Shown here piece by piece: positions 7,091-9,972 of a stretch of DNA of 64,000 bases. The DNA comes from Klebsiella phage ZCKP1. The notes under the pieces are model-generated. The model was not told the origin of the DNA, ran no database searches, and worked only from the letters and a program-made list of their open reading frames with translations. The stretch lies in sequence record MH252123.1; one strand, 5' to 3'. Numbering within the stretch: position 1 is the stretch's first letter; each line of letters begins with the position of its first letter. Made by a program: the position numbers and the translations under genes.

Positions 7091-7120
7091 TTGACAACTA
7101 ACATTATTTTATGTTAGATT
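7091..7120 (+). promoter_or_regulatory. sigma70-type promoter (aactATTGACAA family)
   Basis: TTGACA 7091-7096, 17-nt spacer, TTAGAT; tRNA-Ser begins 9 nt downstream. Confidence 0.45.
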
Positions 7121-7128
7121 ATAAGTAT

Positions 7129-7219
7129 GGAAGGGCAAATCGACGTGGCGACGAAAACGGTCTTGAAAACCGCCGAGCTTGAAAGAGCCTTGGGAGTTCG
7201 ACTCTCCCTCCTTCCGCCA
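7129..7219 (+). tRNA. tRNA-Ser (TGA), type II
   Basis: acceptor GGAAGGG/TCCTTCC, loop CTTGAAA, long variable arm, T-loop TTCGACT, CCA encoded. Confidence 0.65.
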
Positions 7220-7439: not shown

Positions 7440-7527
7440 GGTGAGTTAATTCCGTAGGGGTAGCGGGGCAGACTGTAAATCTGTTATCATTGCGATTCGG
7501 GTGGTTCGACTCCATCACTCACCACCA
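7440..7527 (+). tRNA. tRNA-Tyr (GTA), type II
   Basis: acceptor GGTGAGT/ACTCACC, loop CTGTAAA, long variable arm, T-loop TTCGACT, CCA encoded. Confidence 0.6.
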
Positions 7528-7710: not shown

Positions 7711-7785
7711 GCTCCTATAGTATAATGGCTATTACAACGGTTTTGTAATCCGTGGATCTCTGTTCGATTCAGAGTGGGAGCACCA
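7711..7785 (+). tRNA. tRNA-Thr (TGT)
   Basis: acceptor GCTCCTA/TGGGAGC, loop TTTGTAA, T-loop TTCGATT, CCA encoded. Confidence 0.6.
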
Positions 7786-8138
7786 ACACAACATTAAGGG
7801 CACTGTGATTGATCGTCGTATCCTGTGCACAAGGTCTGTTCGAAAGACAGTGTTCTTAGTATTGTGTTGATCACAAAAAGAGTCACCTGAAACTTGACCG
7901 GAGTAGGGTTGGATGGGGCAAAAGAAGAAGCGGCTCTCCCATCGACAGCAACGAAGAATAATATTTGACTTTGGTTTTGTATTATTTTAAGTTAGCTTAC
8001 CGAACGTAGGGCTAGTCACCCAACGGGATACTCGTCACTGTCCCACTCAAAGAAAAGAAGAACCAAACTGTTAACGTTAAGAAAAAATTACCCTTAACTA
8101 ATCCATTTTATCACAAATGGATTTCATATGTCAATATG

Positions 8139-8163
8139 TTTGCGCGTTGCACAGCGCGCAAAA
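8139..8163. promoter_or_regulatory. perfect inverted repeat upstream of the HigA-like gene (candidate operator)
   Basis: TTGCGCG-ttgcacag-CGCGCAA about 25 nt upstream of the RBS of the 8186 ORF. Confidence 0.45.
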
Positions 8164-8185
8164 TCAGAGTATTTAGGAGGTTACA

Positions 8186-8526
8186 TGGTCACATTGCACA
8201 AACCTATGCACCCCGGCGAGTTTATCCGCGAAGTATATTTAGAGCCGTTAGAGCTTCAAATAGGAACGTTTGCAGAAAAGCTTGGTGTTGATACATCAAC
8301 CGTTAGCCGGTTAGTAAACCAAAAAGCTGACCTTTCTTATGAAATGGCATTACGCCTATCAAAAGCCTTAGGGCGTTCTGCTGACTCTTGGATGAAAATG
8401 CAAATAGCATATGGTTTATATCGTGCTCAAGATAAAGTAAATCTTGAAGAAGTTGAGGTGGTTTACTGCCCACGGAACTTGGATGCTCCTGAAAAACAGG
8501 TCCATGAATTTTATGAAAATATCTAA
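8186..8526 (+). CDS. HigA-like antitoxin / XRE-family HTH protein
   Basis: ATG at 8186 after GGAGG; HPGEFIREVYLEPL...TFAEKLGVDTSTVSRLVNQK...MALRLSKALG matches HigA/VapI signature; no toxin partner adjacent. Confidence 0.6.
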
Positions 8527-8702
8527 AAACGATATTTCATTTAGGTAAAGAAAAGCTACTAACCATAGGGGCTTTTTGTCTCTACACCTGTGTATTTATG
8601 TGAAGACCTAAGGCAGCATCGTTATTCCTGAAGATGCTTAAACAGCGGTCTTGTACACCCTGTTACCACGGTTCAGAAGTTCCCCAACTTACTGAACATT
8701 CG

Positions 8703-8731
8703 AAAAACCACCCCCCAGGTGGTTTTTCGTT
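8703..8731 (+). terminator. rho-independent terminator
   Basis: ACCACCCCCCAGGTGGT hairpin followed by TTTTTCGTTT. Confidence 0.6.
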
Positions 8732-8770
8732 TCAGGATTAAAGATACTCTGCGTCCCACTCAATAAAACT

Positions 8771-8800
8771 ATTGACAACCAATAGTAAAATGTAGTATAG
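8771..8800 (+). promoter_or_regulatory. sigma70-type promoter (aactATTGACAA family)
   Basis: TTGACA 8771-8776, 18-nt spacer, TATAGT 8795-8800; tRNA-Gly starts at 8813. Confidence 0.55.
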
Positions 8801-8812
8801 TAAAGATATAGG

Positions 8813-8886
8813 GCGTTCTTGGTGTAGCGGTAGCATTCCGTCCTTCCAAGTCGGCGGCACGAGTTCGATCCTCGTAGAACGCTCCA
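8813..8886 (+). tRNA. tRNA-Gly (TCC)
   Basis: acceptor GCGTTCT/AGAACGC, discriminator T, loop CTTCCAA, T-arm ACGAG-TTCGATC-CTCGT, CCA encoded; one T.T mismatch in anticodon stem. Confidence 0.5.
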
Positions 8887-9468: not shown

Positions 9469-9584
9469 AATATCGCTTGCCAGCGGTATCTTTGAAGACC
9501 TTGCCTGGTTCCTTCTAAGATGGAGGGGTGCGACTCCTTAACGCACAATTATAATAAAGCATTTCAACTTAACAGTATTTATTA

Positions 9585-9607
9585 GCCTCCTTATTGGAGG
9601 CTTTTTG
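9585..9607 (+). terminator. rho-independent terminator ending the tRNA array
   Basis: GCCTCCttattGGAGGC hairpin followed by TTTTT. Confidence 0.65.
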
Positions 9608-9625
9608 CTATCTATTGAATAAAAC

Positions 9626-9675: not shown

Positions 9676-9972
9676 ATGCCTAAACTAAAACGTGGTCGTG
9701 GAAGACCAACAGCCGAAATGCAACAGATTTACGCAATGGATGCGGCGCAAGCAAGTGTAAAAGAATTATTTGCAGAGCATTATTTAGAAGCTATGCGGTA
9801 TATTGTTGAACTTGTTAATGATAAGGATGCAGCAAAACCTCTCCGCTTCCAAGCAGCTAAAGCTATTAAAGAGCAAGTAGAAGAATGGTTAGAAGAACAT
9901 TATGAAGCTATGGAAGAAGAAACCCCTGCCGTGCAGAATACAGATGACGTTCCTAAAAAGATCGTAATCTAA
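9676..9972 (+). CDS. AT-hook DNA-binding small protein (possible small terminase subunit)
   Basis: N-terminal PKLKRGRGRPT AT-hook; acidic helical C-terminus; RBS AGGAGG; about 1 kb upstream of the large terminase. Confidence 0.35.
   Translation: MPKLKRGRGRPTAEMQQIYAMDAAQASVKELFAEHYLEAMRYIVELVNDKDAAKPLRFQAAKAIKEQVEEWLEEHYEAMEEETPAVQNTDDVPKKIVI

Follow-up and report, generated by a model that had tools for sequence, protein, structure and literature searches.

In a 64-kb stretch of phage DNA (Klebsiella phage ZCKP1, accession no.: MH252123.1), hereafter called the window, a gene for a HigA-like antitoxin lies in a plus-strand array of tRNA genes, with tRNA-Thr (7711-7785) on one side and tRNA-Gly (8813-8886) on the other. 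We describe the gene, the DNA around it, which was apparently taken up from a small plasmid, and the case for its product acting against the toxin encoded by such plasmids. All coordinates without a label are window positions. The first 25 kb of the window were 98.0-98.5% identical to many isolates, with 97% of their length covered, and on this similarity the window is assigned to Phapecoctavirus, as a phAPEC8-like E. coli myovirus of the Stephanstirmvirinae with virulent myoviruses as relatives. The gene and its immediate phage neighbourhood comprise:

8175-8180, plus strand: Shine-Dalgarno (SD) sequence of higA, AGGAGG; GGAGG is kept in nearly all aligned modules and is GTGGG in the metagenome copy L017
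8185-8526, plus strand: higA coding sequence, 113 amino acids (aa) plus stop, from profile, structure and alignment evidence
8772-8801, plus strand: phage promoter-like site TTGACA-18-TATAGT before tRNA-Gly, identical in insert-free relatives; the insert landed just upstream of it

The higA gene and the insert that carries it

The initial annotation had proposed a HigA-type gene in the open reading frame (ORF) at 8128-8526 on the plus strand. This ORF is indeed present inside the tRNA array of a phage with virulent relatives, and the assignment to the family was borne out by profile and fold, but the start was not. By sequence and predicted fold, the product is unambiguously a genuine HigA-family antitoxin protein. 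It matched NCBIfam TIGR02607 (antidote_HigA) with 96.2 bits (cutoff 47.7) over residues 5-83, Pfam HTH_3 with 34.8 bits (threshold 23; 1.7e-8) and PHROG 1381, described as 'plasmid antitoxin with HTH (helix-turn-helix) domain', with 83 bits; sequence matches in the PDB were YbaQ and several HigA proteins. An AlphaFold2 model (pLDDT 87) has five helices in residues 10-84, and its tail is disordered from residue 95 or so onwards. When the PDB was searched with Foldseek, the best 41 matches were all HigA, GraA or PA4674 (TMt 0.75-0.92), and the next fold class followed at an E-value of about 0.02.

The ATG at 8185 and the position of its SD sequence are kept across the plasmid homologues. In contrast, the 19-codon N-terminal extension that begins at 8128 is not conserved, and no ATG is found there in the Klebsiella and metagenome copies; the 132-aa ORF was therefore rejected as the true product. 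Translation almost certainly starts at ATG 8185, as judged from this conservation, and yields 113 aa. The gene has its own ribosome-binding site, as had been claimed: AGGAGG is located 4 nt ahead of ATG 8185. Also in line with the initial annotation, no HigB-like toxin gene is adjacent; tblastn with the plasmid HigB detected no toxin gene anywhere in the 64-kb window (best E-value 1.9). The window protein differs from the plasmid allele by F2V, Q5H and R95C. Exact-protein look-ups found neither the 113-aa nor the 132-aa product on record and, therefore, the haplotype of the window itself is not contained in those protein collections.

The DNA around the gene is missing from the relatives of the phage. 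A 1-kb query around higA was covered to only 30% in 71 of 71 related Phapecoctavirus genomes, and in all 71 the sequence corresponding to window position ~8050 abuts that of ~8753 directly, without an insert. Among the genomes of the whole phage collection, no carrier of the insert DNA was found. Base composition was uninformative on a foreign origin (GC 39.7% vs 39.6%). The insert does match non-mobilizable ColE1-type plasmids of 2.6-3.6 kb from E. coli, Citrobacter and Klebsiella. With NZ_CP104687.1 (L002) as reference donor plasmid, two pieces were aligned by blastn: 8053-8648 corresponds to plasmid positions 791-1387 with 97.7% identity and 8643-8764 to positions 134-257 with 96.8%. Some part of the query was matched by 169 E. 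coli records, with 176 of the 179 places located on plasmids, and by 2,701 plasmid records, mostly in the RNAI piece alone; the higA module was present on 15 plasmids, one of which, like NZ_CP104687.1, is the 2.6-kb donor-type plasmid pRHB37-C16_4. As judged from these alignments, window 8051-8752 (~0.7 kb) is a foreign insert, a cassette captured from a small ColE1-type enterobacterial plasmid, and higA is a recent import and no old phage gene. We consider this provenance, together with the history described below, very probable.

The donor module and the history of the cassette

In five of five annotated donor plasmids examined, higA is divergent to a gene for a 91-aa toxin, with ~270 bp between the two. 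The toxin (plasmid HigB, protein records WP_094544860.1 and WP_032220195.1) belongs to the HigB-like family PF05015 (58.8 bits) and aligns end to end with Rts1 HigB. The same divergent pair was found again on mobilizable metagenome plasmids whose HigA is merely 54-57% identical; this recurrence shows that higB and higA are a conserved pair. HigBA modules are usually arranged with the toxin gene followed by the antitoxin gene in a single operon (PMC11980606), and a divergent layout is unusual for type II toxin-antitoxin (TA) systems; no earlier description of it was found. Alignments of the intergenic region revealed a conserved plus-strand promoter-like site, TTGACT-N16-TAGTAT, near higB and facing higA, and a conserved minus-strand site, TTGACA-N17/18-TAAAAT or TACAGT, facing higB. 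This arrangement of divergent genes with conserved face-to-face promoter-like sites was seen in the donor modules L002 (654-940), L011 and L014 and, therefore, the two mRNAs would overlap in antisense 5' untranslated regions. The donor modules further share a conserved hairpin, GAACTTCT / AGAAGTTC, that may sequester the SD sequence of higB.

The junctions of the cassette can be followed base by base:

8040-8050, no strand: left copy of the 11/12-bp junction repeat, GTCCCACTCAA, the phage target site; a direct repeat in the three-way junction alignment
8051-8056, minus strand: higB relic AGAAAA (6 nt), codons within ..RIFFEWD.. by alignment with L020 (a phage carrier, see below) and L002; left after a 355-bp deletion
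8053-8648, plus strand: plasmid segment A: higA, some of the intergenic region towards higB and the 122 bp that follow higA
8643-8648, no strand: CAGCGG, a 6-bp microhomology that joins plasmid position 1387 to 134; ~1.39 kb including the replication origin are gone
8753-8764, no strand: right copy of the junction repeat, GTCCCACTCAAT (12 bp), common to plasmid (246-257) and phage; marks the crossover

Uninterrupted relatives contain a single copy of the junction repeat; phAPEC8, ESCO13 and anhysbys are examples of cassette-free phages. The plasmid contains two copies: one (246-257) is next to the RNAII promoter, and the other lies within higB and codes for ..FFEWD... The microhomologies at the junctions are GTCCCACTCAA(T), CAGCGG and AAAA, the last of which (8053-8056) belongs to the 355-bp deletion. 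The junction between plasmid positions 1387 and 134 (1387|134) is identical in all three phage haplotypes.

Further carriers were reached through a protein-cluster look-up. OBRO01000001.1, ERZ1741619 and ERZ28589276 are identical 150,704-bp Phapecoctavirus contigs from gut metagenomes, one of them at 189x coverage. The OBRO01 contig is 98.7% identical to the window across 7.9 kb and has the same insert and the same junctions, with six internal differences. Five Logan assemblies (L020-L024) contain a longer form, comprising plasmid positions 416-1387 plus 134-257, at the same site. Here, the left crossover lies within higB, so that the toxin is without its last 13 codons. The form in the window equals this long form minus the 355 bp deleted at AAAA. 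The backbone of L020 is that of a Justusliebigvirus, 94-99% identical to PD06 (L025) outside a patch of ~1.67 kb (L020 1037-2703), with 99% identity in the right flank. This patch is of Phapecoctavirus type and carries the cassette; it is bounded by one crossover within tRNA-Asn and another at the end of tRNA-Gly. Since the crossovers are inside tRNA genes, the tRNA array serves as a recombination bridge between phage genera. In L020 the patch displaces the resident gp134 (Phi92_gp112) region.

One carrier at least was assembled from a metagenome, a type of sample rich in small plasmids, and an assembly chimera in which plasmid reads were fused to a phage contig could be suspected. Such an artefact is extremely improbable: the junction overlaps of 4-12 bp are far below assembler k-mers, identical junctions were found in independent assemblies, in three haplotypes and in different samples, and the phage copies hold private sequence changes. 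Independent captures of the short and the long form were likewise considered and rejected; both forms share the 1387|134 junction, the right junction, the substitutions in the operator core described below and 8183 G>A. The comparison indicates that the cassette arose once, in Phapecoctavirus; homologous recombination then carried it between genera, and it became shorter still in the lineage of the window. The two bases ahead of the left repeat are TG, the phage type, in the window (8038-8039) and in OBRO01, and CA, the type of the plasmid higB, in L020 (1495-1496). This difference is hard to reconcile with the short form descending in a single line from the long form as sampled, and could have arisen by heteroduplex repair or by later recombination with cassette-free phages. 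A 33-mer spanning the left junction had no match among the viral contigs of IMG/VR. Every stage can be seen in public data, from the intact plasmid module through a phage that has the antitoxin next to a dead remnant of the toxin to a phage with the antitoxin alone.

Operator, promoters and RNAI remnant

The regulatory and RNA elements that came with the insert are the following:

8071-8080, no strand: perfect palindrome TTAACGTTAA; the operator of P. aeruginosa HigA has the same palindrome as its core (PMC6987408)
8100-8123, no strand: perfect inverted repeat AATCCATTT-n6-AAATGGATT; overlaps the spacer and -10 of the minus-strand promoter and is unique in the window
8105-8134, minus strand: strong sigma-70-like promoter TTGACA-18-TAAAAT, scan score 11/12, TG-extended; its position is conserved in distant modules
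8139-8162, no strand: 24-bp near-palindrome TTTGCGCGTTG-CA-CAGCGCGCAAA with 10/11 matching arms; derivative of the plasmid sequence TTTGCGC-G-TTGCGCAA-G-GCGCAAA
8629-8730, plus strand: RNAI (RF00106) remnant; plasmid RNAI only from 8643 (RNAI nt ~13)
8735-8763, minus strand: homologue of the ColE1 RNAII promoter, TTGAGT-17-TAATCC, by sequence and by position relative to RNAI; -35 within the right junction repeat

A perfect inverted repeat, TTGCGCG-n8-CGCGCAA, had been noticed upstream of higA and taken for a palindromic operator. The repeat is there (8140-8146 and 8155-8161), but not as a stand-alone element: it is part of the 24-bp near-palindrome and, taken singly, the 7-bp repeat is within chance expectation. 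The 24-bp element is real, since a block TTTGCGyN-TTGCGCAA-GrCGCAAA is conserved just upstream of the higA SD sequence, at the same place, in the modules with 54-57% identical HigA, while the flanks diverge. The plasmid version is laid out as a central palindrome with two distal half-sites. Operators of a like layout are known for P. aeruginosa HigA and P. putida GraA, where two dimers are bound and the central palindrome is essential (PMC6987408). By this analogy, the 24-bp element is a putative HigA operator.

In the phage, this operator is altered. In all phage copies the otherwise invariant TTGCGCAA core is replaced by TTGCACAG, with an additional G>C at 8155, and the substitutions at 8151, 8154 and 8155 abolish the central palindrome. 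The repeat that had been read as a perfect operator derives from the plasmid operator by mutation and has lost the conserved central palindrome. The phage-type variant was found on none of the 15 plasmids and in none of the GTDB genome contigs (31-mer search); among metagenome contigs it occurred in the phage contig only. Of the 12 window-private substitutions, 9 are located inside 8126-8199 (74 bp; P ~4e-5). By analogy to P. aeruginosa HigA, the phage version probably binds HigA worse, not better, and autorepression would therefore be relieved. As an RNA hairpin the palindrome is not distinctive (z = -1.6). The palindrome TTAACGTTAA is shared by the plasmids of E. coli and Citrobacter and is missing from the Klebsiella and metagenome modules; an additional TTAAC is found near it at 8094-8098. 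The promoter at 8105-8134 faces higB in the plasmid; in the phage it is directed antisense to the tRNA array.

A role of HigA as a transcription regulator in the phage had also been suggested, and one can imagine that the protein is mainly a DNA-binding regulator which represses the imported minus-strand promoter (8134-8105) or other promoters of phage or host. The HTH_3 fold is of the kind that binds palindromic operators, three palindromes lie beside or over the imported promoter, and P. aeruginosa HigA controls genes beyond its own operon (PMC6987408). Nevertheless, we regard this as quite improbable. Neither palindrome recurs in the 64-kb window beyond chance, so that a role in the regulation of phage genes is unsupported; moreover, the conserved operator core is mutated in all phage copies, and the gene is a recent import that is dispensable in more than 70 relatives.

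Downstream of higA, the RNAI remnant scored 63.2 bits in Rfam (gathering score 47), compared to 104.5 bits for the plasmid copy. The promoter of RNAI is absent, and the first ~12 nt together with stem-loop 1 are replaced by unrelated sequence; stem-loop 1 is lost because promoter and 5' end are missing. Stem-loop 2 and the stem-loop 3 terminator (8701-8729 plus U run) are intact (fold z = -4.9). The element at 8735-8763 is presumably the RNAII promoter, as judged in part from the organisation of ColE1; the origin that RNAII would prime is absent from the phage. The loop of stem-loop 3 is inverted across the phage lineages, CCCCCCA in the window (8712-8718) and TTGGGGGG in L020 (2528-2534), a hairpin-loop flip of the kind that is typical of template switching.

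With stem-loops 2 and 3 well folded and an RNAII promoter homologue complete by sequence, the RNAs themselves might be of use, if the RNAI remnant or a 5' fragment of RNAII disturbed the replication of ColE1-type plasmids or if the homology aided plasmid-phage recombination or transduction. Indeed, PhiTE escape phages acquired the ability to transduce plasmids (PMC3475682). However, the promoter, 5' tail and stem-loop 1 of RNAI are gone, with the drop in Rfam score given above, and the inverted loop and several substitutions between lineages are as expected without constraint. An effect on plasmid replication is unlikely because RNAI is damaged and drifting; effects on copy number would, in addition, be slow against a lytic cycle. 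Altogether, a benefit from the RNAs is very improbable.

A few observations concern the wider surroundings. At 7440-7524, Rfam reported an extra tRNA (39 bits; gathering score 29), which the OBRO01 contig shares, and at 7129-7215 a tRNA-Sec-like match below threshold (37.4 bits; gathering score 47). ARAGORN gave neither of them; both may be unusual or degenerate tRNA genes of the array. A weak RyhB-like match (27.6 bits, gathering score 55) at 9555-9609, upstream of an ORF (9676-9972) annotated as small terminase subunit in relatives, overlaps a terminator-like hairpin (9584-9602) and is probably merely a terminator. MG065650.1, MG065639.1, OP562383.1 and others, labelled 'Campylobacter phage' (one 'Acinetobacter phage'), are ~98% identical to these coliphages over many kb; the host labels of these records look doubtful.

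A putative role against plasmid HigB

The two genes of the module fared differently in the phages. In the long form, the higB remnant is not only 13 codons short at its end but has also acquired three phage-private changes: G49S, H53R and a +1 frameshift. In the alignment, H53 corresponds to His54 of Rts1 HigB, and the lost tail contained the equivalents of Asp90 and His92; His54, Asp90 and His92 are critical for the activity of Rts1 HigB (PMC5027501). Thus, higB has three private lesions in 238 nt, compared to none in the 267 nt of the HigA core. Codons 6-94 of HigA are without any change among the three phage haplotypes, compared to 12 events in the other 429 nt of the shared insert (Fisher P = 0.005) or, against non-coding sites only, with P = 0.04; the small number of events and the post hoc choice of the partition count against this test of purifying selection. 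Five amino-acid changes were found in phage copies (F2V, Q5H, R95C, A101T, Y110stop), all at the protein termini; the L020 allele is without YENI.

That a lone antitoxin might neutralise a HigB-type toxin had been suggested in the initial annotation. We propose that the captured HigA neutralises plasmid HigB during infection, and we give this a probability of roughly one half. Circumstantial support from the sequences is strong: the plasmid copy is recent, its partner is a HigB-like toxin, the toxin was lost stepwise and the antitoxin core is unchanged. An antitoxin gene without a toxin in a phage with virulent relatives also agrees with the pattern of an anti-defence gene. As the junctions show, the plasmid recombined with a Phapecoctavirus genome at the 10-12-bp microhomology TCCCACTCAA, the origin-bearing part of the plasmid was lost via the 6-bp microhomology, and the crossover within higB severed the catalytic C-terminus of the toxin. 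The later 355-bp deletion then cleared the dead higB remnant and left higA and the 5'-truncated RNAI. The cassette was passed on in at least two Phapecoctavirus genomes and into Justusliebigvirus by homologous recombination inside tRNA genes. According to our proposal, with higA transcribed from the promoters of the phage tRNA array and freed from autorepression by the mutated operator core, HigA would be made early in infection and would bind the mRNA-cleaving HigB of resident plasmids of the donor type. Without phage HigA, the labile plasmid HigA would not be replenished after takeover, and HigB would be freed and shut down translation (abortive infection). The HigB of a TAC module is known to mediate abortive infection (PMC11980606).

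Transcription of higA deserves a closer look. On the plus strand, the closest phage promoter-like site is found at 7091-7120, and between it and the insert there is no predicted terminator. No sigma-70-type promoter for higA inside the insert passed the scan, and hand-picked candidates were weak; the conserved upstream promoter of the plasmid module, likely the native one of higA, is outside the retained segment. For these reasons higA is likely transcribed by read-through of the tRNA transcript, which would end at the RNAI terminator. An intrinsic terminator right behind higA (8551-8576) was considered and rejected, its fold being no better than that of shuffled sequences (z = -0.4). The lack of a promoter of its own speaks against a selected function, as do several other points. 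Expression of higA in the phage is an assumption, and the RNAII-type promoter and the toxin promoter, both retained, could yield antisense transcripts. The putative binding of HigB must survive F2V, Q5H and R95C. The operator substitutions might stem from an unsampled donor allele. The cassette is found in just three haplotypes, compared to more than 70 relatives without it. Finally, no published or database evidence for plasmid higBA as a defence system was found, and PADLOC gave no hit for HigA or HigB.

Some of these points fit a neutral relic. In that case, illegitimate recombination between the phage and a high-copy plasmid would have left passenger DNA with a useless HigA in a dispensable spacer of the tRNA array, which persists and spreads only through linkage to the tRNA genes before deletion catches up. 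The junctions are typical of accidental microhomology-mediated joining, useless pieces are aboard (RNAI is broken, and the RNAII and toxin promoters are orphans), the probable native promoter of higA is missing and the cassette is rare among relatives. The five coding changes (5/5) are non-synonymous or nonsense and, being at the termini, could reflect relaxed constraint, and the transfer to Justusliebigvirus could amount to neutral gene conversion within the tRNA array. On the other hand, the deletions took the origin and the toxin remnant and halted at higA in every lineage, the lesions in higB have no counterpart in the HigA core, and the cassette endured while its flanks diverged by 1.3% and crossed a genus boundary. 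A neutral relic is the main rival to the proposed role, if rather unlikely.

The neutralisation of plasmid HigB by the phage protein has a close parallel in PhiTE-F, a Pectobacterium phage (Blower et al. 2012, PMC3475682), in which a virulent myovirus likewise took the antitoxin half of a plasmid TA system by recombination, without the toxin. PhiTE-F took up a type III RNA antitoxin, ToxI, in an event that was selected in the laboratory and relied on partly homologous sequences; the gene described here encodes a type II protein and was joined via microhomologies of 4-12 bp, natural assemblies make intermediates and spread between genera visible, and the function is putative. Lone phage genes that are related to antitoxins or mimic them are also known from T4 Dmd (against RnlA/LsoA) and AdfN/NADAR (against DarTG1) (PMC11825919; PMC11869752), and T4-like phages have orphan antitoxins against DarTG1 (PMC11825919). 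Dmd and AdfN/NADAR neutralise a host toxin that would abort infection; they are old and domesticated genes of proven function with no traceable donor, whereas phage higA has ~97% DNA identity to its donor and a putative function.

The phage protein itself is an ordinary member of the HigA family. It shares the fold (TM 0.8-0.9) and TIGR02607 with Rts1/P. vulgaris HigA, PA4674 and GraA (PDB 4mct, 6jpi, 6f8h), and the donor plasmid module has, like those HigBA systems, an operator with a central palindrome and two distal half-sites and a PF05015 partner toxin. It differs from them in the divergent genes with face-to-face promoters in place of the usual higB-higA operon and in an extra disordered acidic tail of ~20 aa in HigA and, in the phage, in the missing toxin and the mutated operator core. 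HigA-family HTH proteins (PHROG 1381) are also encoded by Aeromonas phage Aes012, Vibrio phage ICP1 and Stx phages, some of them in virulent phages without a neighbour annotated as HigB (the ICP1 neighbours are all 'hypothetical'); among the Stx prophages, at least one such HigA (GER2) has an annotated adjacent toxin ('killer' protein). Unlike the gene described here, these have no traceable donor, and their products are at most 53% identical to the window protein. A literature search for Phapecoctavirus and antitoxin found nothing relevant. What is new is that the recent uptake of a plasmid's type II antitoxin by virulent coliphages in the wild can be traced, with its intermediates preserved and its spread across genera.

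The natural anti-phage role of ordinary plasmid type II TA modules is debated, and most of the evidence comes from laboratory over-expression. An antitoxin that is kept, a toxin that is discarded and a cassette that is passed to another genus are the footprint expected if such a module exerts a real selective pressure. The fuller account, in which a wild phage stole a type II antitoxin to beat the HigB-based abortive infection of a plasmid, the operator mutations de-repress the gene and the cassette spreads via the tRNA array, we put forward tentatively, at somewhat less than an even chance. Simple plating and co-expression could test it, since the donor plasmid is known, as are sister phages without the cassette and the sequence of the cassette itself. 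The divergent higB/higA architecture is unusual and so far uncharacterised. The cassette further shows that accessory genes can land and be exchanged in the tRNA arrays of large coliphages and, with respect to phage therapy, phAPEC8- and phi92-like candidates are evidently able to acquire plasmid DNA. If the proposed role of the phage antitoxin is true, tiny 'cryptic' ColE1-type plasmids with divergent higB/higA would be phage-defence elements in gut Enterobacteriaceae.

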